Assembly (NCBI GenBank): GCA_963843795.1
Contig: CAWJLW010000006.1
Location: 1,426,001-1,490,000, forward strand
Reading direction: 5' to 3'
Origin: an uncultured bacterium
GTDB taxonomy: Bacteria; Armatimonadota; Abditibacteriia; Abditibacteriales; Abditibacteriaceae
Length of the DNA stretch: 64,000 bases
The notes under the pieces were generated by a model, which saw only the letters and a list, made by a program, of their open reading frames with translations, had not been told where the DNA came from and made no database searches. The translations under genes and the position numbers were made by a program. Shown here piece by piece: positions 8,352 to 63,896 of the stretch (positions are counted from its first letter, which is position 1; each line of letters starts with the position of its first letter).

Positions 8352-9263
8352 TTATTCTCCTAAAACATCGACCAACCAGTTTGCCATGCGACTGCCCGCC
8401 AGCGCCAAACGCGTGTCGCAGAGAATTTTCATGTGACGAATATAATCCTGCGATGGTATTGCGCGCTGCGGTGTCGAAAACGCGAAATCGTCAGCCAGAA
8501 GATTGCTTTCGCGCGCCCACTCACTTGCCTTTAATTCGGGCTCAGCCACATTGGCTTCGCCCGATTTCTGTGCGAAATCCCGCACAATTTTCAAATCGGG
8601 ATGATCGGAAAACCCAGCGTCGTCAAGCATTTTTATGCGTCCATCGACGACATCGTAGCGATAACCAAAATCCCATAATTGATGCAAGCGCGCGTAAGTG
8701 GCGCCGCCATCGGGATCGTCTTTAGGCCGAAATGTCGCGGTTAAACCGGGCAGCGCACCGATGGGAAAATCGTTGCCGCCGCGATCTCGGTCGATGGCGT
8801 GCAATGGTTGGTGCAAATCGCCGATAACGTGAATCGCAATCGCCAGCCATTCGGCGCGCATTTTCGCGTCGGAATCGGACGAACGCAGCACGACACGCGC
8901 CATTTTCAAGGCGTCGAGCGCGTTGGTTGCTTCTATTGAGTCGGGATTGGCCTTGGCTTTGGCATCGACGTAATGCAGCGAACTGAGATTGTCGCGTTGA
9001 TGGCCTGCTTTCACATCATCCATCCAGCACGAAGCAGTCACGAAATCGTAAGGCCGCGCGGTAGCGTCGCTGCGAAAATCGGGCAGGGCACGCAACAATT
9101 CATCGGCTTTTTGGCGCGTTGCGACTGGTAAGTGATTGTAAGCGATTTGAGCGGAAATCATGTGGCCGCCCGCGTCCCACGCGCTGCAAGTACTTGCAGC
9201 AGCATTGAGCAGGAAAAATGAAGCGGCAAGTGCTTGCAATGGTTGGCGAATAAAATTGAGCAT
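8352..9263 (-). CDS. S1/P1 nuclease, secreted
   Basis: Signal peptide then WDAGGH; WMDD, HVIGDLHQPLH, DRGGN, LHQLWD zinc motifs. Confidence 0.9.
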   Translation of the reverse strand: MLNFIRQPLQALAASFFLLNAAASTCSAWDAGGHMISAQIAYNHLPVATRQKADELLRALPDFRSDATARPYDFVTASCWMDDVKAGHQRDNLSSLHYVDAKAKANPDSIEATNALDALKMARVVLRSSDSDAKMRAEWLAIAIHVIGDLHQPLHAIDRDRGGNDFPIGALPGLTATFRPKDDPDGGATYARLHQLWDFGYRYDVVDGRIKMLDDAGFSDHPDLKIVRDFAQKSGEANVAEPELKASEWARESNLLADDFAFSTPQRAIPSQDYIRHMKILCDTRLALAGSRMANWLVDVLGE

Positions 9264-9269
9264 AAAAAC

Positions 9270-10781
9270 TTAAAATTTTAACAACGGATTGCGCGCTTCG
9301 TAGGAGCGCAGTTGTTCAAAAGCGGACAGCTTTGCCGTGTTATTGCTGGCGCGCAGTTCTTTTTCCAGATACAGCGTGCGCGCGGCGCGCACCAGTCGCA
9401 ACAAACGCGCCTCACGAATTTCGGGATCGTCGTTGGCGCTTTGAGTGCGATAAGCGTGCAACGAATTCAATAATTTCTGCACTTGCGCGTCGCGTTTTTC
9501 CAATTCTACGAGCGCGTCGCTGCGAGCGCGAGTGTAGGTTGCGCTGTCATTTTTGGCGCGCAAACCGGGAAACTTATTTTGAAGCGCGGCGCGCAAATCT
9601 TCGCGCTGTTTAACCAAATTGGCGGGTAGCGGCGTGGTGCCGGGCACTTCGCTGTGCGCGAGATATTCCTGCCAGGCGCGCGCGATACGATCTTCTCCGC
9701 TCAGCTTCAACGAGGCCGAAAGCTCATCTAAAATGGCGCGTTGCCAGGGAGCTGCGCCTTTCAATGTTTGGCTGTAGGGAACTTGGAGCCAGAATTCGTT
9801 GTTGTTATCGGCGTTTTGGCGCAGCAGTGCATCGGAAGTCATAATCGGCACGTCGATGGAGTCTTCGTGAATCGTCGCGTGAGCGAAGGCTTCGTTCATG
9901 CCAACGCGGCCATCGCGATTGTAATCGGCGCTCTCGGCTTTTTCACCCAGGCGGGTCTGGCCTGAAAGCGCGGAAAAGAAGGCCGAAGTGAAATCTTCGT
10001 AATCGGCTTCGTTGATTTCCGGCGTGCAACCCGCTGCGGGACGTTCTTTGACCGTAGCGAAAAATCCGCAAAAATCGCGCTGCACGTAGGGTTTATTCGG
10101 ATCGCCATCCTGAAAAATCAGGTTGGCGAACGCGCCGGAAAAGCATTGCACCATCACCAGAACCACAGGCCGATTCGCGGGCAGTTTTTGCAGTTGATCG
10201 GCCATTTCGCGTACGCTGAGGGTGTTGTCGTTCCACAGATAATACACGTTGTTTTCCAAATCGGCGCGTCGCGAATCGGCTTCTTTGCCTCGTCCGCCGT
10301 GACCGGTGAAATACAGCAAATAGCGCGCGTCTGCGGGCGCGTTTGCGCCCAGAGTTTGGAACTGCGCGGCGATAGAAGTTTTACTGGACGGGCCTTCGAT
10401 GCGCGCCAATGAGGTTTTGCGGAAGTCGATGCTGCCTTTGGAAACGTCTTCGTTAAATAAAAAGGCAAACGCGGCGCTGTGGATACTGGGAACCGTTCCG
10501 TTGAGAAATTGCACGGTGGCCGAATTTTTCTGCCCGTCGGCAAATAAAATATTATGAGGCGTCTGCCCCAACAAGCGGCCGACGTATTTCACATTGCTTT
10601 CAATGGCATATTGGTTCATTTTTGGCTCTGGTCCGCCACCGATGAGCAACGCGCGTAACGCTGTGGTAGGTGGCGCGGCAGCGGTTTGGGCGGAACTGAG
10701 GGTGTTGGCGCTCATCAACAACGTGGCCGTAATCGCCGGTGTCCTAACCGCGCGAAAGTTGAATTTAGGTCGAGTTATCAT
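9270..10781 (-). CDS. Secreted clan CD (caspase/C13-like) cysteine peptidase domain protein
   Basis: Signal peptide; LYFTGHG and MVQCFSG His/Cys dyad motifs. Confidence 0.65.
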   Translation of the reverse strand: MITRPKFNFRAVRTPAITATLLMSANTLSSAQTAAAPPTTALRALLIGGGPEPKMNQYAIESNVKYVGRLLGQTPHNILFADGQKNSATVQFLNGTVPSIHSAAFAFLFNEDVSKGSIDFRKTSLARIEGPSSKTSIAAQFQTLGANAPADARYLLYFTGHGGRGKEADSRRADLENNVYYLWNDNTLSVREMADQLQKLPANRPVVLVMVQCFSGAFANLIFQDGDPNKPYVQRDFCGFFATVKERPAAGCTPEINEADYEDFTSAFFSALSGQTRLGEKAESADYNRDGRVGMNEAFAHATIHEDSIDVPIMTSDALLRQNADNNNEFWLQVPYSQTLKGAAPWQRAILDELSASLKLSGEDRIARAWQEYLAHSEVPGTTPLPANLVKQREDLRAALQNKFPGLRAKNDSATYTRARSDALVELEKRDAQVQKLLNSLHAYRTQSANDDPEIREARLLRLVRAARTLYLEKELRASNNTAKLSAFEQLRSYEARNPLLKF

Positions 10782-10932
10782 AATCAGAGCCGAGTATAAG
10801 AGTGTCGAAATACTGAAACCAGAACTGCTTCCAGGCAGAATAATGTCGAGGTTTGACGTTGGATGGATATTGGGGTCGCAAGTACTTGCACACGATTTCT
10901 GAGGTTTTTAAGTTTGAGGGAAAGAACGTTTT

Positions 10933-11694
10933 ATGAGTATGGGTTGGATGTCAGAGCCACATAACTGGCTGGCTTTTATTACATTGTTGGGATTAGAAAT
11001 TGTTCTCAATGTCGATAACATTATTCTGATTTCAATTTTATCGGCCAAGTTGCCGCCCGAACAGCAACAGCGAGCGCGCTACACCGGTTTGTTCCTGGCG
11101 ATGTTCATTCGCATCGGTCTGCTATGTTCGCTGGCCTGGCTCACGAAATTGACCGCGCCGCTATTCTCGATTCTTGGACACGGCTTCTCCGGTCGCGACT
11201 TGATTTTACTGCTGGGCGGTTTGTTTTTAATTGCCAAATCGACGCAAGAAATTCATCACAGTCTGGAAGGCTCATCAAGCGATAATCACGAAAAAGAAAC
11301 GCGCAAAGTGCCGACTTTCGTTGCGACCATTGCGCAAATTCTGTTGCTGGATATAGTATTTTCCCTAGATTCTGTCATTACCGCCATCGGCATGGCCAAC
11401 GACCTCGGCATCATGGTTTCGGCTGTCGTGATCTCGGTCGCATTTATGATGTTTTTTGCCAATTCGATCAGCAATTTCGTCGAAGCGCGCCCGACTGTGA
11501 AAATGCTCGCCATCAGTTTTCTTTTGATGATCGGCGTAGTGCTGGTCGCCGAAGGTTGGGGCCAGCACGTTTCCAAAGGCTACATTTATTTCGCGATGGG
11601 CTTCTCGCTTTTCGTTGAAATGTTGAACTTGAAAATTCGCGGCACAAGTGGCGAACCAGTGAAACTGCGCGAATCGTCGTTAAAAAATGATTAA
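10933..11694 (+). CDS. TerC family membrane protein
   Basis: LEIVLNVDN, LDIVFSLDSVITA, KGYIYFAMGFS. Confidence 0.92.
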   Translation: MSMGWMSEPHNWLAFITLLGLEIVLNVDNIILISILSAKLPPEQQQRARYTGLFLAMFIRIGLLCSLAWLTKLTAPLFSILGHGFSGRDLILLLGGLFLIAKSTQEIHHSLEGSSSDNHEKETRKVPTFVATIAQILLLDIVFSLDSVITAIGMANDLGIMVSAVVISVAFMMFFANSISNFVEARPTVKMLAISFLLMIGVVLVAEGWGQHVSKGYIYFAMGFSLFVEMLNLKIRGTSGEPVKLRESSLKND

Positions 11695-11747
11695 AAACAT
11701 CAAAAGCGCGCAGCAAGTACTTGCTGCGCGCTTTTGATGTTTTTAAT
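11690..11747. terminator. 58-bp perfect palindrome / probable bidirectional terminator
   Basis: ATTAAAAACATCAAAAGCGCGCA-GCAAGTACTTGC-TGCGCGCTTTTGATGTTTTTAAT spanning both stop codons of convergent genes. Confidence 0.85.
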
Positions 11748-12957
11748 TGAACGGCAAAGTGAGCGTTACAGGTTCCGCCGCCATCAAAGTTTCTTCGCGA
11801 TTAATGGTGACATCGAGCGCCAAATCTGGCGCGGCGGCGAATTCGAACGGTGCTTGATTGCGCAGCGCACAAGAGAGAGCGTGCCACAATTCCAATACGG
11901 CGCTCGCTCGGTTCAGTGTGCTGCCGTCGTGACGCGGGGCCTGAGTTTCGTTGCGCGCCCACAGCGCGAAAAAGGCATTAAGTTCTTCGGATAAACCCAG
12001 AATTTGTGCGTTGAAAAGGCGCGCGGTTGCGCCGGGTGGAGAAATTGTGCGCGTAGCTTCGCGCGGCTCAAAAATTTGCACTTCCCGTCCGCCGCGACAC
12101 AGCAACGAACGACCTTGCGAGCCACAAATTTCCAGACGCGGCAAATCGGCGTTCCAATCATCAGCGCTATTAAGCAGAATAGTCGCGCTACTGCCATCGC
12201 GGTTTTCGATCCACACGTTGCTTACGCCGTCGCAAGTACTTGCCGCTATGCGACGCACTACAGACGCCAGATTGTCGTGCGCACCATGCGCGACATCGCG
12301 CCCTAAATCGGGTGCGAGAAACGTGAGTACCAGTTCGAGCGCGGCATAAATCGCGGCGACATCGTGCGAATTTTCGGACGGCATTGAATGAGGCCAACGC
12401 AAAGCCAGAGCGCGCAGCGGACCGATTTCTCCACTCGCATGCAAGCGTCGCGCGGCGCGATGAGCAAGCATCTGGCTGGCGGGGCGCGCACACCAAATCA
12501 CGCGCGCGGCGTGTAATTTGGCGGCTTCGCGGGCGCGCTGAAAATTGGTTGCGGGCGGCCCGGCGAGCCAAATCCAACGTGCGCAATTTTCTAATTTGCG
12601 CGCGCCCAAGTCGGACAGCAATCGTTCCGTGCGCGCGGGCGATGTCGCGACAATTAACGCATCAACGCCAATAATGCCCGACGCCATTTCGCTGCACAAC
12701 GTCGTCCAATCGCAGATGCGCGGGATACGCATCGCGCGCGCCACGCGTTCTAAACGCGGCGCATTATCATCGCATAGTGCGACGATTTCGGGGCGCGCGG
12801 GCACTTGGTAAGCGATGTCGATTTGCGCGTTGGGACGACGCAGCCACCACGCCCCTTCATCGGGCGCGCTTAGCGCCGAAGGCGTCGAAAGAAATGGCAA
12901 TATCACGTTTTCGCTGAGGGTTCCACTGCCGATTACGGCCACGCGCATTCGTCGCAC
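11743..12957 (-). CDS. Divergent Gfo/Idh/MocA-like oxidoreductase
   Basis: RVAVIGSG, EIVALCD, DALIVATS, GEIGPLR, LEICGSQG; the EKP motif is replaced by GPP. Confidence 0.6.
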   Translation of the reverse strand: MRRMRVAVIGSGTLSENVILPFLSTPSALSAPDEGAWWLRRPNAQIDIAYQVPARPEIVALCDDNAPRLERVARAMRIPRICDWTTLCSEMASGIIGVDALIVATSPARTERLLSDLGARKLENCARWIWLAGPPATNFQRAREAAKLHAARVIWCARPASQMLAHRAARRLHASGEIGPLRALALRWPHSMPSENSHDVAAIYAALELVLTFLAPDLGRDVAHGAHDNLASVVRRIAASTCDGVSNVWIENRDGSSATILLNSADDWNADLPRLEICGSQGRSLLCRGGREVQIFEPREATRTISPPGATARLFNAQILGLSEELNAFFALWARNETQAPRHDGSTLNRASAVLELWHALSCALRNQAPFEFAAAPDLALDVTINREETLMAAEPVTLTLPFN

Positions 12958-13206
12958 AATTCATTCTCCTTGGATTATCTTGGGGTCTATTGCAAGTACT
13001 TACAGCGAACCAAAATTCAGAAGCGTTCGAATGACGCTTAGCTACTAACGGCCTTGAGTTTGCAAGTGTAACTGCGAACTTTGTTCCGCTCTTTGAGCCT
13101 ACAATGAACTTTTTTACACCGCGAAACGTTCAGCGAATTAAGCGATTTATACGCGGCCATGAGTCTAATGGCTGGCGTAACTATTTAATTGTCTATGGGA
13201 AATTTT

Positions 13207-19392: not shown

Positions 19393-19414
19393 CGAAGCTG
19401 GTTGTGCAACCTTT

Positions 19415-20795: not shown

Positions 20796-20896
20796 ATAAC
20801 GGCGCGATGAACTCGCGTTCAGAACTTTCACTCTGCAAGTACTTGCAACAGCAATTGTAACTTGCGGATATAAAAATTACATTAAAGAGGTACTAA

Positions 20897-22534
<1,638 letters not shown>

Positions 22535-22563
22535 TTCGCCCGTTCGCTAAAAGGCCAAACATT

Positions 22564-22601
22564 CAAAACGCGCCCTGCAAGTACTTGCAGGGCGCGTTTT
22601 G
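22564..22601 (+). terminator. 38-bp perfect palindrome / groEL terminator
   Basis: CAAAACGCGCCC-TGCAAGTACTTGCA-GGGCGCGTTTTG. Confidence 0.85.
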
Positions 22602-22842
22602 TGGTTTGTCGACTCAATAAATTACGCAAATTTCGCCATTTTTCGCCATTGTAGGATATTTCCGATTGGAAATCGACGATTTCGATTCGATTGCGAGTCG
22701 CTTGCGTTTGGGCGTCCTCTAATTTATCAATTGAATGGGTGAGCGAAATATCGCATTGATAGTGTGTTGTAAGTACTTACAAATCACTACAATCGCTCTC
22801 GCTGTGATAATTCCGATATTCAATTTGAAACGGAAAACCAAA

Positions 22843-27534: not shown

Positions 27535-28944
27535 TCAAAATTCAATCAACGCGGTTTCACTTTGATCGCGCAACAACTTTTCCTCGCGCGTTGAAGCCGA
27601 AAATAATAAAGCCGCTTTCTCGTTGGCCGCGCGCTCCATCGCGGGAATTGCGATAAAGACCAAATCTCCAGCGATTTTTGTCTGCACTCCTCGTGGCGCA
27701 CCCGCAAGTACTTGCAGCGCGCCTTGGCGCTGTGCAAGTACTTGCACACGCTGCGCGCGCGCTTTGCCACCGATAATTGTGTGCAACTGCCATTCGTAAA
27801 TTGTGCCCGGATGGGGCGCTCCATCGAGATACATCGCCAATTTCCAAATTTTCCCGGATAGCTCAACCGATAAACCGCGCATATCGGTGCCTGCTGGTGC
27901 GCGCGGCGCGGTATCCGCTTTTTCATCGCTCAGAAGCAGATTGCCCCTTATAGCCGAACTTTTCACCGCACCGAATAGCTCATTGCGCCGCACAAAGGCA
28001 CGCAAATAATGGGGCGTAAATAACAATTGACTGCCATATTCTTCCAGTGCACGCCGCTTTTGTTCTTCAACGCTCGCGCTGAGGTTCAGCGAGCGCCATT
28101 CCGTGTTCTGTTGCATTTGCGCCTGAGGCGGCACTAAGCGCGCTTGGGGATGCAAACCGTGCGGCAGCGGCCACACGCCGTGATGAATCAAAAAGCCCAT
28201 AACGCCCGATTTGCGTGCCCACGCCGCGCTTTTGTCTTGTGCAAGTACTTGCAGCGCGGCTTGCGCATAGGCGTAAGCGGCCCAATGATCGACGTGCGTG
28301 TCGGCGGGATGCGTAGTCAAAACCAAAGTTGGCCGAAACGCCCGCATTTCGCGCACGATGTCAGATAGCATTTGCGCGCCGCGATAAGTTGCATGGGGCG
28401 TCGGAGAAGTCGGGTAGGGCGAATGATTGAGTCTGGTAGTTAAGGAAGTGTAAGTCGCGGGCCAGTTTTCCCACATTGTTTTGAGGCCGCCATCGGGATA
28501 GCCCAGAAACACGATGTCTTGTCGTTGCACACCCAACTGAGCGAGCGCACGCACGGCTTCGCGCTGTCGCATTTTCGCCATTTCGACATACGAATGACGG
28601 CGCAAATAGTGGAAATTTTCGCCAATGATGGTAGCACCCGACCCATCGCCATTGGTACAAAAAACGATGCGCACGCGCGCGCCGCTTTTCACAGCTTGGG
28701 CAATCGCGCCGCCCGCGCCCAAAGTTTCGTCGTCTAAATGCGGCGAAAGTACTAAAACGCGAGCCGTTTTTTGTATTGGCGAGAAAGTCTTTAATGGAAT
28801 GTTTTGTTGTGCGCTATCGGCGCGAATTAAAGTCGCAACACGCCTCGCGCCCGGCCAAAACCACCACGCGACAATCGCGCACGCAAAAAGTGCGCACGCG
28901 ATAATCGGTCTGGATCTGGTTTTTGTAGTGTTTGTTCTATGCAC
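27535..28944 (-). CDS. PIG-L family deacetylase, membrane-anchored
   Basis: SPHLDDE, TNGDG, RQREA, LGYPDG, DTHVDH. Confidence 0.88.
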   Translation of the reverse strand: MHRTNTTKTRSRPIIACALFACAIVAWWFWPGARRVATLIRADSAQQNIPLKTFSPIQKTARVLVLSPHLDDETLGAGGAIAQAVKSGARVRIVFCTNGDGSGATIIGENFHYLRRHSYVEMAKMRQREAVRALAQLGVQRQDIVFLGYPDGGLKTMWENWPATYTSLTTRLNHSPYPTSPTPHATYRGAQMLSDIVREMRAFRPTLVLTTHPADTHVDHWAAYAYAQAALQVLAQDKSAAWARKSGVMGFLIHHGVWPLPHGLHPQARLVPPQAQMQQNTEWRSLNLSASVEEQKRRALEEYGSQLLFTPHYLRAFVRRNELFGAVKSSAIRGNLLLSDEKADTAPRAPAGTDMRGLSVELSGKIWKLAMYLDGAPHPGTIYEWQLHTIIGGKARAQRVQVLAQRQGALQVLAGAPRGVQTKIAGDLVFIAIPAMERAANEKAALLFSASTREEKLLRDQSETALIEF

Positions 28945-35298: not shown

Positions 35299-35464
35299 GT
35301 AAATGCGTTGCGCAAGTTTTTTCTGGAGAATTTGCAAATAGTTTGATGAGCAAAACGCAAAGGCCGCTGCAAGTACTTGCAACGGCCTTTGGCATCAGAT
35401 TTTTTGATTAAGTTGTCCTGCAAGTACTTGCAGTGCGGTGCTTTTGCGCCAATCGAGGGCGTCT

Positions 35465-35632: not shown

Positions 35633-39460
<3,828 letters not shown>

Positions 39461-41616: not shown

Positions 41617-42102
41617 ATGGCAATTCCAGTTTTACCGCCCAGTGCGCCGTTCAATTCCGAACAACGCGCGTGGCTCAATGGTTTTTTGGCAGCTGTGCTG
41701 TACCAAGAAAGCGAATGCGATGGCGCGGTGGCTTATGCCAACGATGAGCGCAGTTTGAATCGCATCGGCTCGGATTCTGGCGGCGATACGATTGTCGTGC
41801 CGCCGACTTCGGCTGCTGCTCTCAACGGAAGCGCGAGCGCTGGGGACAGTGCACACGGCGACGATTTCTTGTGGCACGATCCGGCTTTGGAGTTGGATGA
41901 GCGCATGGAAATGGTGCAAAACGAGCCGTTGCCGCTTCAATTGATGGCGGCCATGGCGCAACTCGATTGCGGGCAGTGCGGTTATTTATGCAACACCTAC
42001 GCGGCGGCAATTGCCGATGGCAGCGAGAAAAGTTTGAAGAAATGCGTGCCAGGCGAAAAAGCGACTGCTAACAAATTAAAAGAACTGATGGCCGCCTCTT
42101 GA
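41617..42102 (+). CDS. Fe-S cluster protein (RnfB-like FeS domain)
   Basis: WHDPAL, MAAMAQLDCGQCGYLCNTYA...CVPG. Confidence 0.8.
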   Translation: MAIPVLPPSAPFNSEQRAWLNGFLAAVLYQESECDGAVAYANDERSLNRIGSDSGGDTIVVPPTSAAALNGSASAGDSAHGDDFLWHDPALELDERMEMVQNEPLPLQLMAAMAQLDCGQCGYLCNTYAAAIADGSEKSLKKCVPGEKATANKLKELMAAS

Positions 42103-42142
42103 AGCTACATTTTAAAACGTTGTTCTATAGAACTCCCCAATA

Positions 42143-43456
42143 ATGACACAAATTCTTCCCGACGACGCCCCTTTTTCCGACACGCAGCGTTCGTGGCTCG
42201 ACGGCTTTTTTTCGGCTGCGCTGAAATTGGAACCTAAGGCCCCTGCTCCCATTGGCGCCAAAGCTCCACCGCTCGAAATCGAAATGAAAGCGCCGCAGAG
42301 AACGGTACCTGCTCCGAAAATCGCGGCGTATGATCGCGAACACCCGTTTCCCGCCCGCATTGTTCACGTCACACGTCTGTGCGGCGAAGATTCGCAAAAA
42401 GATGTGCGCGCGATTGCTCTCAGTCTCAAAGGAAGCGGACTGAAATATACCGTCGGCGATGCGCTCGGCGTTTATCCCGAAAACGAACACGAATTAGTCG
42501 AGCAACTACTTGCAGCATTGGGCGCGAGTGGCGAAGAACCGGTCGTGACACCAGACAGTCGCGTGGTTCCGATGCGCATTGCCTTACTTCTCGGCTACGA
42601 TATTACACGCGTGGGCGAGGATTTACTGCAACTTTTGGCGCGCACTTCGGGCGATGATGGCGCCGCCGCAACGCTTCAAGAACTGGCCGATGATGATAAA
42701 AACAGTTGGCTCGAAGGCCGCGATGTGCTGGATGTGTTGCAGCGTTTTCCATCTTCGACCGCGACGCCCGAAGAAATCGTGGCGTCGCTGTCTCCTTTGC
42801 AACCGCGTTTGTATTCCATCGCGTCTTCACAAAATGCCCATCCCGATGAGGTGCATCTCACGGTTGGAGTGGTGCGCTATTACGCTGGTCAACGCGCGCG
42901 CAAAGGCGTAGCTTCGACCTATTTATCAGAAAATAGCACGCTGGACTTGGGCCGTCGCGTCGGGGTTTTCGTGCATCCCGCGCCCGGTTTTCGCTTGCCC
43001 GAAGATGGCAACACGCCGATCATTATGGTCGGGCCGGGCACTGGCATCGCGCCTTTTCGCGCTTTTTTGCAGGAGCGACGCGCGATGAAAACGAGCGGGA
43101 AAAATTGGCTGTTTTTCGGTGATCAGCGCCAGCACTGCGATTATCTTTATCGCAGCGAACTGGAAGAATTTCTGTCCGATACCACATTGGCGCGCCTGGA
43201 TACGGCGTTTTCACGCGATCAGGACGAGAAAATTTACGTGCAAAACCGGATGCTGGAAAACGGCGCTGAAATTTGGCATTGGCTCGAAGAAGGCGCGCAT
43301 TTTTATGTTTGTGGCGATGCTAAACGTATGGCTAAAGATGTCGATAACGCGCTGCGCGACCTTGTGGCGGAACACGGACAAATGAGCGAAGGAGAAGCGC
43401 GCGAATTTGTGCAGGGCCTGACTAAAGCCCGGCGCTATCAACGCGATGTGTATTGA
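42143..43456 (+). CDS. Sulfite reductase alpha-like FAD/NADPH flavoprotein lacking flavodoxin domain
   Basis: PRLYSIASS, GVASTY, GPGTGIAPFR, YVCGDA, RYQRDVY. Confidence 0.9.
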   Translation: MTQILPDDAPFSDTQRSWLDGFFSAALKLEPKAPAPIGAKAPPLEIEMKAPQRTVPAPKIAAYDREHPFPARIVHVTRLCGEDSQKDVRAIALSLKGSGLKYTVGDALGVYPENEHELVEQLLAALGASGEEPVVTPDSRVVPMRIALLLGYDITRVGEDLLQLLARTSGDDGAAATLQELADDDKNSWLEGRDVLDVLQRFPSSTATPEEIVASLSPLQPRLYSIASSQNAHPDEVHLTVGVVRYYAGQRARKGVASTYLSENSTLDLGRRVGVFVHPAPGFRLPEDGNTPIIMVGPGTGIAPFRAFLQERRAMKTSGKNWLFFGDQRQHCDYLYRSELEEFLSDTTLARLDTAFSRDQDEKIYVQNRMLENGAEIWHWLEEGAHFYVCGDAKRMAKDVDNALRDLVAEHGQMSEGEAREFVQGLTKARRYQRDVY

Positions 43457-52275: not shown

Positions 52276-52677
52276 ATGAAACCGCATCTCAGCATGGTCA
52301 CACTGGGCGTTGCCGATTTGGAACGCGCGACAATTTTCTATCGTGATGGCTTGCATTTGCCGGTCGAAGGCAATTTCGATGGCGTGACATTTTTCAAGCT
52401 AAGCGGCGCTTGGATTTCCTTGTTTCCGCGCGGTGAATTGTTCAAAGATGCGAACGTAAATCCACCCGCAAGTACTTGCAACGCCGCTTTCACCCTGGCG
52501 CATAACGTGGCGAGCAGAGCAGAAGTCGATAGCGTTTTGCAGCAGGCCGCAGCGGCGGGTGCAACGATTCTCAAAGCGCCGCAAGACGCGTTTTGGGGAG
52601 GTTATCACGGTTTCTTCGCCGATTTGGATGGTTTCGTATGGGAAATTGCGTGGAATCCAGATTTGGATTTAACGTGA
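52276..52677 (+). CDS. VOC (glyoxalase-like) protein
   Basis: VTLGVADLERA, LAHNV, FWGGYHGFFADLDG..WEIAWNP. Confidence 0.9.
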   Translation: MKPHLSMVTLGVADLERATIFYRDGLHLPVEGNFDGVTFFKLSGAWISLFPRGELFKDANVNPPASTCNAAFTLAHNVASRAEVDSVLQQAAAAGATILKAPQDAFWGGYHGFFADLDGFVWEIAWNPDLDLT

Positions 52678-53775
52678 GTATTTCGAGCTTCCATTCGCGA
52701 CGCTGCGGAAAATTGCCAGCACGTGCGGCGCTTGCGTTTCCGCAGTGAATTCTTGCAAAACGGTTTCGTGACCGGCTTCACCAATTTGCTGGCGCAATTT
52801 TACATCGTCCAATAGCCGTGCAAGTACTTGCACCCATTCTTCGCCCGAAGCCAGAAAACCGTTTTCGCCATCGCGAATGATGTCGCGATTCACGCCGACT
52901 GGCGAACACACGGCGGGAATTCCGAGCGCCATATATTGCAGCGCCTTCATGGCACATTTGCCGCGCGTAAATGGCGCGTCGGGTAAAGGCATCAGGCCGA
53001 TGTCCAGAGCGCTCAAATCTTCGGCTTCACTACTGGCGCGCCAGCGCACATTTTCGATTTTTACGCCGGGCCATTGCCAATCGCACGGGCCGATGAAACG
53101 AAAGATGAAATCTTTCTGCTCGGCCAATTTCGCCAGCGCGGGGCCGATGGTTTCCAGATAAGCAATTGTTGTTGTGCTGCCGCTCCAACCGATGACCGGC
53201 GGGCCGCTTTTATCAGCGCGCGAAGCCGGGCCGAAGCGCTCATAATCGTAGGAACGGGTGTCAATTGTGGAAGGAATCACGCTGGTGTTGGCGTTGAACT
53301 GCTGTGCCCATTCTTGTAGATATTTGTTGCCGACCATGACGTGCGAAGCCAACCGGCAAATCTGCGCGACTTTTTGGGGCGATTTGAGCCAGCCCAGAGC
53401 CCGATTGGCTTCGCTGACGGCGGGCAGATAAATCGCGTCGTCGAAATCATAAACAATGGGAATGTTTTGACGCGCGATGAGGTTTTCCAGCCACGCCGGA
53501 CCGAGCAGCGCGGCTTCGCGATAAAGGTAAATCGCGTCGAATTCGCGCGCCAATCGCGGTAACTTCAAGCGCCGACCGGTCGCTTGCAATACTGCGCGCG
53601 CTTTGCGTCCGTATTGGCCGGGCTGATAAATGCGTTGGTTAAGATCGCGGTTTTCAAAGGGTACGAAAGTCATCTGAACGCCTTGAGCGCGCATGAGCGG
53701 TTCCCATTGTTCGATGCGATAGCGCTGTCCGGGCGAAATGTTATAAAGGTAGGGTACGATTGCGAGAATTTTCAT
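52669..53775 (-). CDS. GT4 glycosyltransferase
   Basis: MKILAIVPY, QRYRIEQ, YDFDDAI, GWSGS, KALQYMALGIP. Confidence 0.9.
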   Translation of the reverse strand: MKILAIVPYLYNISPGQRYRIEQWEPLMRAQGVQMTFVPFENRDLNQRIYQPGQYGRKARAVLQATGRRLKLPRLAREFDAIYLYREAALLGPAWLENLIARQNIPIVYDFDDAIYLPAVSEANRALGWLKSPQKVAQICRLASHVMVGNKYLQEWAQQFNANTSVIPSTIDTRSYDYERFGPASRADKSGPPVIGWSGSTTTIAYLETIGPALAKLAEQKDFIFRFIGPCDWQWPGVKIENVRWRASSEAEDLSALDIGLMPLPDAPFTRGKCAMKALQYMALGIPAVCSPVGVNRDIIRDGENGFLASGEEWVQVLARLLDDVKLRQQIGEAGHETVLQEFTAETQAPHVLAIFRSVANGSSKYSR

Positions 53776-55171: not shown

Positions 55172-57073
55172 ATGTGTGGGATTGTCGGGGTTCTTCAATT
55201 AGACGGCGCGCGGGCCGAGCGCTCGCAGGTGCAGCGTATGAACGACTGCATCGTGCATCGTGGGCCGGACGAGCAGGGCGTGTGGGTGCAAGGCCCCGTC
55301 GCCATTGCGATGCGTCGCCTCTCGATTATCGATCTGGCCAGCGGGCAGCAGCCGATGAGCAACGAAGACCAGAAAGTGTGGATCGTTTTCAACGGCGAAA
55401 TCTACAACTTCGCCGAACTGCGCGAACGTCTCATTGCTAAAGGCCACATTTTTCGCACGCATTCTGATACCGAAACCATCATTCATGCGTATGAAGAATG
55501 GGGCGAGGATTGTCCCAAGTACTTGCGTGGTATGTTCGCTTTCGCGATTTATGATGCGCGTCAGGGTGATGAAAATTACACCTTGTTTTTGGCGCGTGAT
55601 CGCGTCGGCAAAAAGCCGCTGCTTTATACGACTTCGGGCCGACAATTTATCTGGGGTTCGGAATTTCAAGCGATTTTAGCCAACTCGCAAGTCGCACGTC
55701 GTCCGTATTTCGCCGCCATCGATTCGTATCTGGCGACCAGTGCCGTGCCCGCGCCGATGACGGCGTATGAAGGTATTCACAAATTGCCGCCCGCGCATTC
55801 GCTGACGATTCATCAAGGCGAAATCAAGCTGCGCCGCTACTGGTCGCTCGACTTCACCAAGAAAATCAAAATTTCGGAAGAAGACGCTGCCGAGGAGCTG
55901 ATCGAGCGTTTAGACGAAGCCGTGCGCGTGCGCATGATTTCCGAAGTGCCCTTGGGCGCTTTTCTTTCCGGCGGCATCGATTCAAGCGCGATTGTCGCAA
56001 TGATGGCGCGCCACTCGACGCGACCTGTGAAAACGTTTTCTATCGGTTTCAAAGAAAAAAGCTATTCGGAAATTGAACACGCGCGCCGCATTGCGCGCCT
56101 TTACGGTACCGATCACACCGAAGTCATCGTTGAGCCTCACGCGATTGATATTTTGCCGCAGCTAGTGCGTCATTATGGCGAACCGTTCGCTGATTCCAGT
56201 GCGGTGCCGACGTTTTATGTTTCGCAAATTACGCGTCGTCATGTCACGGTGGCTCTGGCGGGCGATGGCGGAGACGAATTGTTCGCTGGCTACGAGCGTC
56301 ATCGCGCAATGAGCTTTACCGAAATGGTGCCACGCGGCTTGTTGCGCACCGCGTCGCGCATGAGCAATTATCTGCCCGATGGTGTCGATTTTCGTTCATT
56401 CAATGTGCGTTTGAAACGGATGTTACAAGCCGCTGCTCAAACGCGCTCGCAGCGTTATTTGCAGTGGATTAGTGCTTTTAGCGCGGCACAAAAACGCGAA
56501 CTTTACACGCGCGAATTTTGCGAATTATCAGGCTTTGGTCGCACTAAACAGCCAACCGAACAATGGCTCATTAACCATCGCAATTTGAACGTGATCGACG
56601 CGTGTTTGCTGACCGATACCAACACATATTTGCCCGATGACTTGCTGGTGAAAGTCGATATCACAAGCATGGCGAACAGTTTGGAAGTGCGCGCGCCGTT
56701 TTTGGACACGCCGCTGATGGAATGGGCAGCGACTCTGCCACCAAATTTGAAACTTAAAGGCAAAGTTTCGAAATATATCTTGCGCAAGGCCTTAGCTGAC
56801 AATAATTTGGTTCCGCGTGAAAATATGGAGCGCCCGAAAATGGGCTTTGGCGTGCCGATTCGCCACTGGTTCCACGATGCGATGAAAGCGCTTTTGTATG
56901 ACACTGTTTTGTCTGACCGCGCTTTCGCGCGCGGCTATTTCAAGCCGGACGCGGTGCGAAATTTAGTCAACGAACATTGGGAAGGCCGACAAGACCACGC
57001 GTATCGCTTGTGGGCGCTGCTGATGCTGGAATTGTGGCATCGCGAATTTATCGACAATTTTCCGTCGAAGTGA
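55172..57073 (+). CDS. asnB: Asparagine synthase (glutamine-hydrolysing) family amidotransferase, EPS-associated
   Basis: MCGIVG, HRGPD, RRLSIID, NGEIYN, LSGGIDSS, GDGGDE, EVRAPFLD. Confidence 0.93.
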   Translation: MCGIVGVLQLDGARAERSQVQRMNDCIVHRGPDEQGVWVQGPVAIAMRRLSIIDLASGQQPMSNEDQKVWIVFNGEIYNFAELRERLIAKGHIFRTHSDTETIIHAYEEWGEDCPKYLRGMFAFAIYDARQGDENYTLFLARDRVGKKPLLYTTSGRQFIWGSEFQAILANSQVARRPYFAAIDSYLATSAVPAPMTAYEGIHKLPPAHSLTIHQGEIKLRRYWSLDFTKKIKISEEDAAEELIERLDEAVRVRMISEVPLGAFLSGGIDSSAIVAMMARHSTRPVKTFSIGFKEKSYSEIEHARRIARLYGTDHTEVIVEPHAIDILPQLVRHYGEPFADSSAVPTFYVSQITRRHVTVALAGDGGDELFAGYERHRAMSFTEMVPRGLLRTASRMSNYLPDGVDFRSFNVRLKRMLQAAAQTRSQRYLQWISAFSAAQKRELYTREFCELSGFGRTKQPTEQWLINHRNLNVIDACLLTDTNTYLPDDLLVKVDITSMANSLEVRAPFLDTPLMEWAATLPPNLKLKGKVSKYILRKALADNNLVPRENMERPKMGFGVPIRHWFHDAMKALLYDTVLSDRAFARGYFKPDAVRNLVNEHWEGRQDHAYRLWALLMLELWHREFIDNFPSK

Positions 57074-57087
57074 AAAGAAAATGTCGT

Positions 57088-57119: not shown

Positions 57120-57147
57120 CTTGAAAAACCGAGTTTTTAAAAGCATT

Positions 57148-58381
57148 GTGAGTTCACCCAAAATCCCCCAATTGCCCTTTTCCGATCAACGCTTGCGCGT
57201 GATGCGATTGATCGCGCGTCTTAATATCGGCGGCCCGGCCATTCACACCACACTTTTGACCGAACGCTTGAATCCACAGCGATTTTCTTCGACTTTGGTG
57301 ACTGGCGTCGAAGCGGCCAACGAAGGCCACATGTGGGAATTGATGGGGCCGCGCGATTGGCAACCGATAATCGTGCCTTCGCTGGGGCGTGAAATTTCGC
57401 CGAAAAACGACATCAGCACGCTCCGCGAGGTTGTGCGTTTAATGCGCGCTCAACAGCCGCACATTGTGCATACGCACACGGCTAAAGCCGGCTTTGTCGG
57501 GCGTATGGCGGCGCGTTTGTGCCGTGTACCAATTGTGATTCACACGTTTCACGGCAATGTTTTCAACGGCTACTTTTCGCCGCGCAAAACAAAACTATTC
57601 ATCGGTGTCGAAAAAATGCTGGCTCGTAGGCACCGACCGCATCATCGTGCTGGGTGAGCAACAGAAAAACGAAATTCTACAACTGGGCATCGGGCGCGAA
57701 AAACAGTTTCGCATTGTGCCGCTGGGCTTGGATTTGAAGCCATTTTTGGAAGCCGAACAATGGCGCGGGCAGTTGAAAAGCGAATTGGGTCTCGCGCCCC
57801 AAACTCCTCTGGTTGGCATCGTAGCGCGTCTGGTTCCAATCAAAGCAATAGATATTTTTCTCAAGGCTGCCGCGCAAGTACTTGCAGCGCAACCAGATGC
57901 GCATTTTGTGATTGCGGGCGATGGCGATTTGCGCGCTGAACTGGAAAAATTATCGCAAACTTTAAAAATTCAACATCGCGTGCATTTTTTGGGTTTTCGT
58001 GCCGATTTGCCGCGCATCAACGCCGATTTAAGTTGCAAGGTTTTGTGTTCTTTGAACGAAGGTTTACCAGTCGCCGTCATCGAGGCGCTCGCTTCAGCGC
58101 GGCCTGTCGTGGCCACTGATGTAGGCAGCGTTAAAGATTTAGTAGTCAACGAAGATAGCGGCGTTTTGGTGCCATCGGGCGACGTTGATGCTCTGGCTCA
58201 GGGGATTTTGCGGGTTTTGGAAAAACCCGAACGCGCGGCGCAGTGGGGGAAAAATGGGCGTGAAAGAGTTTTTCCCGCACTAGATATCAGCCGTTTGGTG
58301 AGTGACATCGAAGCATTGTATTGGGAAGTGGCGCGTGAGAAAAATCTGCCGACCAAAAAAGAGCCATTGGTAAAATCATGA
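57148..58381 (+). pseudogene. GT4 glycosyltransferase with +1 frameshift near 57628
   Basis: IARLNIGGPA...HTAKAG...EKMLAR then a shift to GTDRIIVL...NEGLPVAVIEA; start uncertain. Confidence 0.8.
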
Positions 58382-58468
58382 GACGACGCGGCCTGAAAGT
58401 GCGATAATATCACGCGCACGACAAAATTTGAATTGTAAAAATGAATTGAAATTGAAAGGGGAACTGTT

Positions 58469-59413: not shown

Positions 59414-59442
59414 TAGTTATAGCTATAGAGGCGGAATATCAG

Positions 59443-60417: not shown

Positions 60418-60433
60418 AACCTTTGTGCGATTG

Positions 60434-60473
60434 AAAAATTCCTTTCTGCAAGTACTTGCAGAAAGGAATTTTT
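60434..60473. terminator. 40-bp perfect palindrome / terminator
   Basis: AAAAATTCCTTTC-TGCAAGTACTTGCA-GAAAGGAATTTTT after the EPS operon. Confidence 0.85.
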
Positions 60474-60590
60474 ATTTGCGTTGCGAATTTTTAGACACAG
60501 CAATAACCAGAAAATGCAACGCTCCACAACACATCGCGTTGGAAAAATCGAACGTCACCGCACCACGCAATTTATACTGCGAGCATCCTT

Positions 60591-61877: not shown

Positions 61878-61942
61878 AATATCCTGCACGCCGAACGCAT
61901 TAGTGGAAGCGTTCGAAAATTCTCGTTTTGGGAGATTCATCT

Positions 61943-62353
61943 ATGTCGATGCTGCAGGAATTTAAAGAGTTCGCGCTCAAAGGCAATATGCTCGATTTAG
62001 CGATTGGGCTAATTTTGGGCAGTTCGTTTGGTAACGTGGTCAATTCGTTAGTTACTGACTTGATTGTGCCAAGAATCAAGGGTTTAACCTCGGGCGATGT
62101 TAATGCGGCATTGGCGCCACTCGATTACGGCGCGGTTTTTGGCAGTTTGCTAAGTTTCGTGATGTTGAGTGCCGTAACATTTGTTGTGGTGAAAATTATC
62201 AATAAATTGAAGCGTGGCGAGGAGCCAGCGCCGGTCGAAAAAGAATGTCCGCACTGTTATTTTTCGGTTCCAGTCAAAGCCACGCGCTGCGGCCATTGCA
62301 CTTCTATGTTGGGCAACGATTCGATGCCTGAAACTGCAACCGTCACGCTTTGA
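61943..62353 (+). CDS. mscL: Large-conductance mechanosensitive channel with C-terminal zinc ribbon
   Basis: EFKEFALKGNMLDLAIG, VNSLVTDLI, CPHC...RCGHC. Confidence 0.9.
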   Translation: MSMLQEFKEFALKGNMLDLAIGLILGSSFGNVVNSLVTDLIVPRIKGLTSGDVNAALAPLDYGAVFGSLLSFVMLSAVTFVVVKIINKLKRGEEPAPVEKECPHCYFSVPVKATRCGHCTSMLGNDSMPETATVTL

Positions 62354-62438
62354 ATGCGCTGCAAGTACTTGCACTGCAGAAATGCAGCGCGGAACACGCC
62401 TGTAAAGCTGCTGGTCACAGTTAAAGGAGGTTGCGATA

Positions 62439-62726
62439 ATGAACACTTTCATTCCGCTCGAAGATGTGCGCGTGGCAACACCGTGCCGCGCTGACTGGAA
62501 CAAAATGGAGGGCGACGGCAACGCGCGTTTTTGCGGCTCGTGCGCCAAAAATGTTTACAACCTGTCCGAGATGACGCGCGCCGATGCCGAACACTTGATT
62601 CTGGAGCACGAAGGCCATTTATGTGTGCGCTATTATCAGCGCGCCGATGGCACCGTGCTCACCAAAGATTGTCCGGTTGGTATCACCGAACGTCGCCGTC
62701 CGTTCCGCGATCACCAACAATGTTAG
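62439..62726 (+). CDS. Small Cys-rich conserved hypothetical protein
   Basis: AAGGAGG RBS; PCRADWNKM...RFCGSCAKNVYNLSEM...LCVRYYQRADG...DCP. Confidence 0.8.
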   Translation: MNTFIPLEDVRVATPCRADWNKMEGDGNARFCGSCAKNVYNLSEMTRADAEHLILEHEGHLCVRYYQRADGTVLTKDCPVGITERRRPFRDHQQC

Positions 62727-62756
62727 GACAAATTGAAGCACCAAAGGAAAACCACG

Positions 62757-63896
62757 ATGAACAGCCCCGCAAGTACTTGCAGCCCCAATGAAACTCAAAA
62801 CATAGATGACATCGCGTCCAAAGTTTGGAATGGCGAACGTTTATCTTATGAAGATGGCGTGCGTTTGATGCATCATCCAAATTTGAACGAACTGGCGATT
62901 TTGGCCGATCACGTTCGCCAGCGCGTCAATCCGGGCCGCGTCGTGACGTATATCGCGGGGCGCAATATCAATTATTCCAACGTGTGCTGGGTGCAATGTA
63001 AGTTCTGCGCATTTTACGATTTGCCGTCCTCGCAAAAAGGCTACACGCTTTCGCACGATCAGATTTTTGGCAAAATCCAAGAAATGGTCGATTTGGGCGG
63101 TATCGAAATTCTGCTGCAAGGCGGCCTCAATCCGCGCTTGAAAATCGACTATTACGAAGATTTATTCAGCGCCATCAAAGCCAAATTCCCGCAAGTGTGG
63201 ATTCACGGACTCAGCGTCGCCGAAATTCTCTACATCGCCAAAATCTCACGCTTGAGTTTGGAAGACACCCTGAAACGTTTGCGCGCTGCCGGTTTGGGCA
63301 CGATTCCTGGCGCGGGTGCAGAAATGCTGGTCGATCGCGTGCGCAAAGTCATCGCGCCCTACAAAGATACGACTGCTGAATGGCTCGACACGATGAGTTT
63401 GTGGCACCGTTTGGGTGGCCATTCCAGCGTGACGATGATGTATGGAACGGTCGATACGCCCGAAGATCGAGTCGAGCACATGATTCGCACGCGCGATGTG
63501 CAAGATAAATCGCTGGCCGAAACCATGGGCAGTTTCACCGCGTTTATCGCGTGGAATTTTCAGCCTGATGGCACGCCATTAGGCAATCAATTGAAAAGTG
63601 AAACTCTCGATTGGCGCAAAGCCAGTGGCTTCGCTTATCTGCGCACCGTCGCCGTCGGACGTTTGCTGCTCGATAATATTCCACACCATCAAGCGAGTTG
63701 GGTCACGCAAGGCCCTAAAATCGCGCAAATCGCGCTAGATTATGGCTTAGACGATTTTGGCTCGACGATGATGGAAGAAAACGTGGTTTCCGCAGCCGGC
63801 ACCGATTTCGTGATGCCCATCAGCGAAATTGAACGCTTAATCAGCGAAGCGGGCTACGAACCCAAACGCCGCACTACACTTTACGAAGTGTTGTGA
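62757..63896 (+). CDS. mqnC: Cyclic dehypoxanthinyl futalosine synthase (radical SAM)
   Basis: RNINYSNVCWVQCKFC, LLQGG, PGAGAE, QASWVTQG, DFGSTMMEENVVSAAG. Confidence 0.92.
   Translation: MNSPASTCSPNETQNIDDIASKVWNGERLSYEDGVRLMHHPNLNELAILADHVRQRVNPGRVVTYIAGRNINYSNVCWVQCKFCAFYDLPSSQKGYTLSHDQIFGKIQEMVDLGGIEILLQGGLNPRLKIDYYEDLFSAIKAKFPQVWIHGLSVAEILYIAKISRLSLEDTLKRLRAAGLGTIPGAGAEMLVDRVRKVIAPYKDTTAEWLDTMSLWHRLGGHSSVTMMYGTVDTPEDRVEHMIRTRDVQDKSLAETMGSFTAFIAWNFQPDGTPLGNQLKSETLDWRKASGFAYLRTVAVGRLLLDNIPHHQASWVTQGPKIAQIALDYGLDDFGSTMMEENVVSAAGTDFVMPISEIERLISEAGYEPKRRTTLYEVL

Follow-up and report, generated by a model that had tools for sequence, protein, structure and literature searches.

The 12-base palindrome GCAAGTACTTGC occurred 44 times in the 64-kb window (the whole stretch of DNA analysed here) and not once in 100 dinucleotide shuffles. 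In the Abditibacteriaceae genome from which the window comes, labelled G000 in the comparisons, 2,567 copies were counted in 4.3 Mb, where an order-3 Markov model predicts 0.65. The copies of this hyperabundant motif are evenly spaced, absent from foreign islands and dense on small replicons. They are flanked by phased A-tracts, lie in genes through substitution at permissive residues, are conserved between orthologs and are replaced by other dialects in related lineages. These observations support the proposal of a first-pass annotation that a DNA-level constraint writes the motif into proteins, and the constraint acts on double-stranded DNA. From its sequence profile, GCAAGTACTTGC is best read as a lineage-specific self signal for DNA uptake (DUS/USS-like), a reading to which we give an even chance.

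Abundance and distribution of the motif

Perfect copies in G000 far outnumbered copies with one mismatch (2,567 versus 506). Half-sites were few, with full 12-mers making up 2,567 of the 2,736 occurrences of AGTACTTGC. The overall density was 0.6 per kb, with approximately 30% of copies coding and 70% intergenic, so that intergenic DNA carried about 15 times as many copies per kb as coding DNA. A copy was present in 614 of 3,640 called genes, and the 762 coding copies were skewed between reading frames (500:147:115). The motif was spread over the chromosome, terminus included (0.61 versus 0.64 copies per kb), and was absent from the IS, restriction-modification and foreign islands. Periodicity at 8–200 kb did not exceed permutations (spectral peak 6.7; permutation median 6.5, 95th percentile 9.2), with a method simpler than that of the HIP1 paper. 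No site polymorphism was seen in sequencing run X1, which consisted of near-identical DNA at a depth of 2–7.

In the window, all 13 exact coding 12-mers lay where the first-pass annotation had placed them (±3 nt) and in the frames it had given, and the 12-mer has no internal stop codon in any frame. The peptide ASTC was encoded by an S1/P1 nuclease gene (ORF 8352–9263; 9186–9197, minus strand, exact 12-mer), in the N-terminal leader that precedes the S1/P1 domain, which begins at residue 29. ASTC was also found in ORF 11743–12957 (12232–12243, minus, exact 12-mer), in a VOC/glyoxalase protein (52468–52479, plus) and at the N-terminus of MqnC (62769–62780, plus). QVLA occurred three times in a PIG-L protein (all minus; copy 1 at 28241–28252, copy 2 at 27734–27745 and, 30 bp from it, copy 3 at 27704–27715). 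Further QVLA copies were located in a SASA-domain esterase (29084–29095, minus), NirA (40518–40529, plus), a GT1/GT4 glycosyltransferase (52820–52831, minus) and a GT4 glycosyltransferase (57874–57885, plus). KYL occurred twice in a GH2 beta-galactosidase (37519–37530 and 38737–38748, both minus). Two variants described earlier were also present, namely IQVLV at the dapB start, which keeps a 10-bp core (4564–4577, minus), and PKYL in asnB, an 11-of-12 match (55515–55526, plus; 55516 in the annotation). The protein names of the first-pass annotation agreed with Pfam/NCBIfam, except that 'Gfo-like' (ORF 11743–12957) had no match at E ≤ 1e-5 and no Pfam family.

Another 31 copies lay outside confident genes, at 603, 1548, 2598, 3753, 5985, 8231, 8334, 10878, 11713, 15667, 19469, 20835, 22577, 30990, 31029, 32687, 35369, 35420, 35599, 39438, 39725, 41581, 44572, 47016, 47090, 49379, 50747, 53800, 57098, 60448 and 62361; that at 35420 is within a doubtful 39-aa call, and a few may fall in upstream extensions of genes. 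The groEL gene itself (20900–22534) carried no copy, as noted previously, and was flanked by those at 20835 and 22577.

Encoded peptides and conservation of coding copies

The exact GCAAGTACTTGC string encoded 509 of 572 QVLA (89%), 115 of 133 ASTC (86%) and 194 of 316 KYL (61%) peptides in the G000 proteome. Codon usage, the yardstick on which the first-pass annotation had staked its claim, predicted 0.39%, 0.20% and 4.1%, respectively (0.34%, 0.19% and 4.1% with motif copies masked), so the refuting condition set by that annotation did not hold. The peptides tracked the DNA dialect rather than the protein. In orthologous protein sets, QVLA occurred 24 times in G000 and never in its congener G001, whereas QSTL occurred 24 times in G001 and never in G000; SSTR was found 33 times in G009 and not in G000.

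Among 94 copies aligned with orthologs, 55 were ungapped, 9 were gapped and 30 fell outside the alignment; for the most part, coding copies originated through substitution at variable residues rather than insertion. Alignment gaps were commoner near sites (12–33%) than at random positions (6%). In the window, the esterase and GT4 sites read QVTA and KVLV, both ungapped, in the G001 orthologs, and the VOC site differed without a gap in the G009 ortholog. QVLA copy 3 of the PIG-L protein was retained in seven of seven close homologs, and the MqnC position held an AGTACT-core site of the G001 dialect in G001 (11 of 12 bases).

Conservation, a trait shared with HIP1, was compared at coding sites, and individual sites proved better conserved than the sequence around them. 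Against a relative with 66% identity and 63–68% GC, 4 of 10 ungapped sites were kept letter for letter. Of 17 ungapped G000 coding sites, 4 had in G001 an AGTACT core with that genome's own flanks, compared with 4 of 18,778 control positions. No G001 site was found in G000 (0 of 18), and no sites were common to different genera in comparisons with G009 (0 of 30 and 0 of 39). We attribute the motif's presence in the proteome to a constraint on DNA because the peptides follow the dialect, most copies align without gaps and the columns are permissive.

Dialects in related genomes

Six of the 27 family genomes carried RAGTACTY in hyperabundance (2,695–4,371 copies, versus 0–117), with flanks that vary by lineage; exact GCAAGTACTTGC occurred at most three times in each of 40 relatives. 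The relatives' lineage-specific dialects included CAAAGTACTTTG, TCGAGTACTCGA and the non-palindromic CAGCCACG, and the encoded peptides were swapped to match. CAGCCACG, present in three other genomes as singles and inverted pairs, had no strand bias (39 plus, 40 minus in five 20-kb stretches). None of the motifs was found in 17 of the 27 genomes; since the dialects were detected only through de novo counting in 2–60 kb sampled per genome, weaker motifs may have been missed. The AGTACT genera were not sisters in a quick ComEC tree. A repeat in G017 was rejected as a dialect, as it forms a clustered array that we take to be attC-like.

Spacing and A-tracts

The density of coding copies rose from 0.10 to 0.41 per kb as the nearest intergenic copy became more distant, and it did so in each of the four gene-length classes. 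After covariates, the rate ratio for coding copies was 0.78 per flanking copy (z = −3.7). The same gap filling was seen over 400 kb of G009 (0.62/0.42/0.20 per kb), and gaps >5 kb numbered 38 in G000, versus 57.7 ± 4.6 in shuffles. Because gaps between intergenic copies get filled, coding copies are placed where they are needed and not only, as suggested earlier, where they are tolerated.

A-tracts were phased over approximately four helical turns on both sides of the motif. Beside coding copies, AAA frequencies at 7–10, 12–14, 17–21, 23–26 and 28–32 bp were 7.4%, 0.6%, 4.5%, 1.7% and 3.4%, while the control was flat at 2.6%; the phasing at coding copies was also observed in G009. Close pairs were helically phased as well (148 pairs 15–110 bp apart, period approximately 10.4–10.7 bp, R = 0.35), with none of 1,000 jitter controls as high, and the phasing persisted without the 36–45 bp peak.

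Proposed uptake signal and competence genes

Several features argue for the uptake reading because they match the DUS/USS profile, namely the density, the coding share, the frame skew, the permissive yet conserved sites and the absence from islands. The dialects, gap filling, phased A-tracts, motif-rich small replicons and competence genes point the same way. A type IV pilus- or secretin-associated receptor would recognize GCAAGTACTTGC and favour import of the clade's own DNA. This receptor would probably be dimeric or two-fold to bind the palindrome, and the A-tracts may help DNA bend into the pore. Fragments bearing sites would be taken up and recombined more often, and such biased uptake would enrich the motif and fill gaps until most fragments of 1–3 kb have one site. 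Intergenic copies could afterwards often be co-opted as cores of terminator hairpins, a step supported by sequence and folding.

G000 encodes an open ComEC frame, DprA, ComEA, T2SSE ATPases, secretins and a minor-pilin operon; several of its pilus genes are split in the assembly, probably through errors, to judge from contigs with a depth of 2–4. ComEC was detected in 27, DprA in 25 and the minor-pilin operon (by one pilin) in 25 of the 27 genomes. The occurrence of these genes in motif-free relatives counts against the uptake reading, as do the split pilus genes, the lack of sites common to genera or carried from G001 to G000, and the non-sister AGTACT genera. No pilin that follows the dialects was seen when the minor-pilin operons of 20 relatives were inspected, one pilin looked up in the Atlas gave no receptor candidate, and ComP_DUS (PF16732) matched none of the 27 genomes, nor any control.

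In the literature cited, Neisseriaceae DUS resemble GCAAGTACTTGC in that about one third lie in CDS (34% in PMC11893778), dialects surround a common core and recently acquired DNA lacks them. Inverted pairs in spacers, a DUS hallmark, also occur here, including pairs of CAGCCACG, and an overlapping dyad DUS is described in Simonsiella (PMC3630211). The G000 motif differs in being a strict palindrome with no stop in any frame and A-tract flanks. Pasteurellaceae USS likewise are described as having a short core, thousands of copies in genes and terminators, over-represented peptides and more than one dialect. Their tripeptides are skewed between reading frames (PMC2817400), their sites are permissive yet conserved (PMC2397512) and they carry two helically phased T-tracts (PMC3458573). 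However, the USS is a non-palindromic 9-mer of another phylum with both tracts on one side, while GCAAGTACTTGC is a 12-bp palindrome that has a putative uptake role and is flanked on either side by tracts spanning about four turns.

Hairpins and alternative explanations

Only about 27% of the intergenic copies form part of long hairpins, which makes termination a secondary role of the motif. In the window, the copy at 11713, between convergent genes, lies in the middle of a perfect hairpin that bears A and T tracts (11690–11747, terminator-like, z = −11.8), and that at 22577 forms a terminator-like hairpin downstream of groEL (22555–22610, plus, z = −8.9). The copy upstream of groEL, in a spacer between co-directional genes, has a 1-bp arm (20835–20846). 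Perfect arms of at least 8 bp, many with A/T tracts, were found at 187 of 304 convergent-gene copies. In contrast, 235 of 464 divergent spacers carried a copy, and only 22 of 261 copies there had long arms. Copies in spacers of the ribosomal-protein cluster were armless, and coding copies had short arms or none, as first described (≤2 bp in 684 of 762, ≥8 bp in 7). Strong hairpins were predicted for three of four intergenic copies, whereas four of four coding copies folded no better than shuffles. The divergent-spacer, ribosomal-cluster and non-folding coding copies together exclude the purely terminator role that the first-pass annotation had argued against. If a transposase or nuclease had amplified the motif as a terminator or REP-type hairpin, with coding copies as by-products, the intergenic majority and the hairpins would be accounted for. 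As the sole cause this origin is largely refuted by coding copies that are armless, substituted, conserved (4 of 10 ungapped sites), gap-filling and flanked by phased A-tracts. REP/RAYT and NTS/Ssn repeats also form many intergenic hairpins, but NTS are reported in genes only rarely (2%), compared with 30% coding copies of GCAAGTACTTGC. No cognate transposase or small nuclease was found for GCAAGTACTTGC, the single Y1 transposase match being flanked by another repeat and no small Ssn-type GIY-YIG being detected, and we regard this origin as extremely improbable.

Alternatively, the sites could bind a dimeric protein, abundant inside the cell, which would bend or wrap approximately 100 bp every 1–2 kb to organize or segregate the nucleoid or to mark self DNA, with small replicons gaining sites to hitch-hike. 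The perfect palindrome, few half-sites and two-sided tracts over four turns fit such a protein at least as well as they fit a receptor, and the helically phased close pairs and gap filling are also consistent with it. A role in chromosome structure has been argued for HIP1 (PMC5861425), and the E. coli SlmA site is a 12-bp palindrome with AGTACT at its centre as well (from a string count in PMC3020112). However, for a housekeeping protein it would be odd that dialects differ between congeners and that 17 of 27 genomes lack any of the motifs detected, no candidate for the protein emerged (ParB matches, four), and neither terminus exclusion, which marks SlmA and Noc sites, nor 8–200 kb periodicity above permutation was seen. 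We consider it unlikely. A nucleoid-occlusion site proper was rejected, given thousands of evenly spread copies with the terminus included, compared with 52 ChIP sites and Ter exclusion for SlmA. Chi sites are non-palindromic and polarized with replication, and a Chi site was rejected for the palindromic G000 motif and for CAGCCACG, which lacks local strand bias. In a HIP1-like process, the central GTAC would be marked by an orphan methyltransferase of family-wide occurrence, the flanks would be ratcheted to consensus through methyl-directed repair or recombination, and saturation would be reached near one site per kb, as Elhai's model predicts (PMC4390886). An orphan beta-class methyltransferase (C6:2517368-2518135) is present in 22 of 27 genomes, and GTAC was the most depleted tetramer in sampled DNA of 11 carriers compared with four non-carriers (log2 −3.85), the latter forming one clade. 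HIP1 is moreover reported to raise transformation in a way that depends on methylation (10.1101/2024.09.10.611283). Yet the enzyme also occurs in motif-free genomes that avoid GTAC and is missing from G016, CAGCCACG lacks GTAC, and whole-genome CGTACG counts separate carriers from non-carriers poorly. Its GTAC target is putative; the closest solved relative is M.RsrI, with GAATTC specificity. Neither an m5C nor a Dam-family enzyme was detected in G000 (92% complete), and no PabI-type GTAC restriction enzyme was found in the 27 genomes, nor in any control. A repair ratchet also leaves the phased A-tracts and 12-bp specificity unexplained, and we judge this process decidedly improbable. HIP1 itself, in the accounts cited, is likewise a hyperabundant palindrome that occurs within and outside coding DNA, is conserved more than codon or peptide selection would explain, and has been proposed as an uptake or recombination signal; GCAAGTACTTGC possibly contains the orphan methyltransferase's site. 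HIP1 differs in being 8 bp long, widespread across a phylum and periodic at 10–90 kb, while GCAAGTACTTGC has 12 bp, 50% GC, changes between congeners, 15-fold intergenic enrichment and no long-range period found.

Significance and small replicons

The literature cited names proven uptake sequences for two families only, Neisseriaceae and Pasteurellaceae, with HIP1 as a proposed further case. If the uptake reading is true, this would be a third family, in another phylum. At slightly less than an even chance, Abditibacteriaceae may possess a third sequence-specific uptake system, independent of those two and outside Proteobacteria, with palindromic AGTACT-core and separate non-palindromic dialects, bilateral bending tracts, a putative receptor and small replicons with no relaxase detected that load the host dialect to spread. 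A nucleoid protein that wraps DNA at positioned sites in their thousands would be no less surprising. The lineage dialects with peptide swaps, gap filling, phased A-tracts at coding copies and motif-dense small replicons are new here. With its several dialects, its motif-free sister lineages and its palindromic as well as non-palindromic forms, the family provides a natural experiment on signal origin, switching and proteome tax, and gap filling bears directly on the long-standing debate over whether DUS and HIP1 reflect selection or drive. In practice, the dialect would be the first addition to make to DNA for transforming these little-studied bacteria.

A motif-pair scan of genome contigs returned 23 loci, none in a motif-rich genome. 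One viral scan gave six loci, with single copies only; a further scan gave at least 134 stretches, of which 75 loci were examined, and its sole multi-copy case was an AT-rich virus whose copies were mainly intergenic and which had no homologs in G000. These viral scans, run with motifs other than the g6 dialect, turned up no phage of this host. Three circular replicons of 7.5–12 kb, chosen by a motif-pair search, held 46 copies in 30.2 kb (1.5 per kb), and a scan of 36 ORFs revealed no relaxase. One of the replicons encodes a tape-measure-like protein, so their spread may be phage-helped, which, like their selection by motif pairs, is a caveat to the uptake reading. The dialect further assigns plasmids and contigs to their hosts.

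Abundance of the palindrome and its imprint on the proteome

The palindrome GCAAGTACTTGC occurred 44 times in the window and in none of 100 shuffles. The whole genome (G000; 4.30 Mb, 92% complete, placed in the Abditibacteriaceae from the names of homologous proteins) contained 2,567 copies, where an order-3 Markov model predicted 0.65, plus 506 copies with one mismatch. Based on our own gene caller, which used conservative starts and predicted 3,640 genes, 762 copies were coding, 22 lay at gene edges and 1,783 were intergenic, corresponding to 0.20 per kb in coding and 3.1 per kb in intergenic DNA; up to 174 of the non-coding copies could fall in upstream ATG extensions of genes. Coding copies were read as QVLA (500), KYL (147) or ASTC (115). 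All 13 exact coding copies named in the first-pass annotation were at the correct positions and in the correct frames, and both of its variant copies were present in frame. Its protein names were backed by Pfam, with the exception of 'Gfo-like'. The annotation had further proposed that a DNA-level force writes the motif into the proteome, an interpretation that was supported and sharpened here. No tetrapeptides were more over-represented than QVLA (572 vs 39) and ASTC (133 vs 4), and the exact nucleotide string encoded 509 of 572 QVLA, 115 of 133 ASTC and 194 of 316 KYL, where codon usage predicted 0.39%, 0.20% and 4.1%, respectively. The more conserved the protein, the lower its palindrome density: 0.27 per kb at 45–65% identity and 0.08 at 75% identity or more.

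The alignments indicate that coding copies arose by substitution and not by insertion, the two origins that the first-pass annotation had asked to be distinguished: 55 of 94 site-by-ortholog comparisons were ungapped and 9 gapped, with 30 sites beyond the local alignment. In a larger comparison, gaps were found near 12–33% of aligned sites, above the control of 6%. Amino acid identity at palindrome sites was 0.29–0.48 vs 0.65, and homologs also diverged from each other at the site columns (0.38 vs 0.81, based on 66 column pairs in a small number of genes). Individual sites were nevertheless retained among close relatives. The three QVLA of PIG-L were present in seven of seven homologs at 69–77% identity and in none of five at 43–49%, as determined at the protein level with 12 of 72 homologs aligned. 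In a metagenome relative, represented by seven loci chosen by motif pair (63–68% GC, median identity 66%), four of ten ungapped sites were letter-perfect and six retained AGTACT, with differing adjacent residues.

Placement along the genome

The median spacing of the palindrome was 1.4 kb. On contig C6, it was evenly distributed (47–83 per 100 kb, two end bins excepted), the skew-defined terminus included, and no periodicity between 8 and 200 kb stood out in G000. Islands with IS, restriction or foreign-looking genes were free of it. Coding copies fill gaps between intergenic copies: coding density was 0.10 per kb nearest to an intergenic copy and 0.41 per kb farthest from one, an increase seen in each of the four length classes, and the rate ratio per flanking copy was 0.78 after covariates (z = −3.7). 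The contrast was weaker for genes with two roomy flanks (0.21, 0.19, 0.14). Of four control 9-mers, the QVL-related one showed the trend and the other three showed it little or not at all. Gap filling was replicated in G009, another genome of the family (0.62, 0.42, 0.20).

Two regions without the palindrome were observed. At the end of contig C6 (3600000–3623414), GC content rose to 64–70% and type IV secretion-like genes were present; we propose a foreign element or a misjoin. Contig C3 (2634–27317) carried a cluster of phage-tail-like genes, by inspection similar to a contractile injection system.

DNA geometry and hairpins

A-tracts were phased outward from the palindrome, also around coding copies, with AAA peaks at approximately 8, 19, 30 and 40 bp. 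Random coding controls were flat, even when conditioned on the first tract. The pattern was the same in G009; the signal in the congener G001 was not clear-cut. Close palindrome pairs were phased at approximately 10.5 bp, although tracts shared by the pairs could account for the peaks at 30 and 40 bp. Together, phased tracts and phased pairs point to an agent that would be a protein working on bent double-stranded DNA. Perfect arms of at least 8 bp flanked 187 of 304 copies between convergent genes, 277 of 1,213 between co-directional genes and 22 of 261 in divergent spacers; among the 762 coding copies, 7 had such arms. Terminator use is thus secondary, in agreement with the earlier argument against a purely terminator role. 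Tandem copies 10–13 bp apart were also observed (24 neighbouring pairs overlapped or abutted); most of the tandem pairs listed formed the centre of a longer hairpin.

Dialects among relatives

The exact 12-mer was not enriched in any of 40 relatives. Among 27 family genomes, a motif was found in 10 and none in the remaining 17. RAGTACTY was hyperabundant in six of the 27, with the dialects CAAAGTACTTTG in G001, TCGAGTACTCGA in G009, G015 and G019, and CGAGTACTCG in G012. The G006 dialect was AGTACGGTCGA, chiefly as inverted pairs. A non-palindromic motif, CAGCCACG, occurred in G007, G016 and G018 both singly and in closely spaced inverted pairs, without local strand bias; strand counts of GCAGCCACG were 919/864, 491/481 and 690/721, respectively, vs 13–89 elsewhere. 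Peptides tracked dialect in orthologous sets: QVLA 24 vs 0 and QSTL 0 vs 24 (G000 vs G001), and SSTR 0 in G000 vs 33 in G009. Of 17 G000 sites aligned without gaps, 4 showed AGTACT in G001 within the flanks of the G001 dialect, compared with 4 of 18,778 in the control. None of 18 G001 sites looked up in G000 was shared, nor were sites shared with G009 (0/30 and 0/39). In a quick ComEC tree, motif-free genera separated the two AGTACT genera (support 85–94).

An orphan beta-class methyltransferase was encoded in 22 of the 27 family genomes, and GTAC avoidance partly followed it. No PabI-type enzyme was found in the family genomes. GTAC was avoided almost totally in G005, G008, G011, G014 and several genomes of group g2; four samples of group g5 had 0 vs approximately 84 expected, and three had two CGTACG per genome. 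One contig of G024 (C98; L110) held five of that genome's nine RAGTACTY without its GTAC avoidance, and is possibly misbinned or newly acquired. An array of imperfect repeat pairs, clustered between small genes (G017, C44:100001–120000; L115), resembled integron attC sites.

Competence genes and probable assembly errors

G000 encoded an open ComEC frame, DprA, ComEA, seven T2SSE-family ATPase matches, eight secretin matches and a minor-pilin operon. A prepilin-like pattern search gave 54 matches, at least one of them false; approximately 45 paralogous prepilin-like proteins had a near-identical N-terminus. Since competence genes were family-wide where tested, they had no power to discriminate. 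The assembly splits several pilus genes. Assembly errors are likely, as low-depth contigs of sequencing run X1, with near-identical DNA, were one base shorter at each of five positions in the pilus region and at one window gene break. In the window, genes for a sulfite reductase flavoprotein (41617–43456; one base absent in run X1 near 42120) and a glycosyltransferase (57148–58381) each seemed split into two ORFs, probably due to indel errors.

Candidate function of the palindrome

The constraint acts at the DNA level, per length, on duplex DNA, and is lineage-specific. We consider it an even call whether the palindrome is a DNA uptake sequence, with an inferred agent. This reading is placed first because uptake sequences are the only known class joining all of the following traits: dialects, a coding share of approximately one third, co-option as terminators, A/T tracts in phase, sites that are permissive yet conserved, and no copies in newly acquired DNA. 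A nucleoid protein site, for which the strict dyad and the long bilateral phasing speak, seems rather unlikely; a route like that of HIP1, the cyanobacterial highly iterated palindrome, for which the GTAC core of the palindrome speaks, is improbable. The palindrome is a candidate uptake signal, and we do not file it as a member of the DUS (Neisseriaceae) or USS (Pasteurellaceae). The comparison drew on portions of published work (PMC4390886, PMC2817400, PMC11893778, PMC12616744, PMC3630211, PMC2397512, PMC5861425, PMC1939737, PMC3458573, PMC3020112, 10.1101/2025.10.24.684340, PMC13756078, 10.1101/2024.09.10.611283). None of the papers listed for either the motifs or the family described them; supplementary tables of genome-wide motif surveys could include them.

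Mobile and foreign DNA

Among 57 metagenome loci with the motif pair, three were circular elements (7.5–12 kb) with 46 palindrome copies in 30.2 kb, many within ORFs and with the same A-tracts. As they were chosen for motif density, they demonstrate existence and not a rule. They had short matches (73–80%) to G000 contigs C8 and C3 and encoded D5- or DnaB/Toprim-type replication proteins and HTH proteins. Of 36 hand-picked ORFs from five loci, none matched a relaxase and one was similar to a tape-measure protein. L237, L264 and L252 (also L248 and L260) formed a small circular replicon family with primase-helicase, TubC_N and HTH genes; L237, perhaps a phage satellite, encoded a 943-aa tape-measure-like protein. 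In an AT-rich virus (L322, L364, L304, L328), for which no homologs were found in G000, TGCAAGTACTTGCA was nearly confined to intergenic DNA and is probably an operator. The repeats on either side of a Y1 transposase-like gene in G000 (C6:751600–752500) were palindromes of the GTAG type with no relation to the 12-mer. Degenerate 22-bp tandem arrays containing the same 12-mer were observed in Prevotella, Segatella, Paraprevotella and one record labelled Clostridium (L027, L029–L032, L034, L035, L038, L040, L041, L043), and single operator-like 12-mer pairs in Actinobacteria and Bacteroidota (L028, L033, L036, L037, L044–L049).
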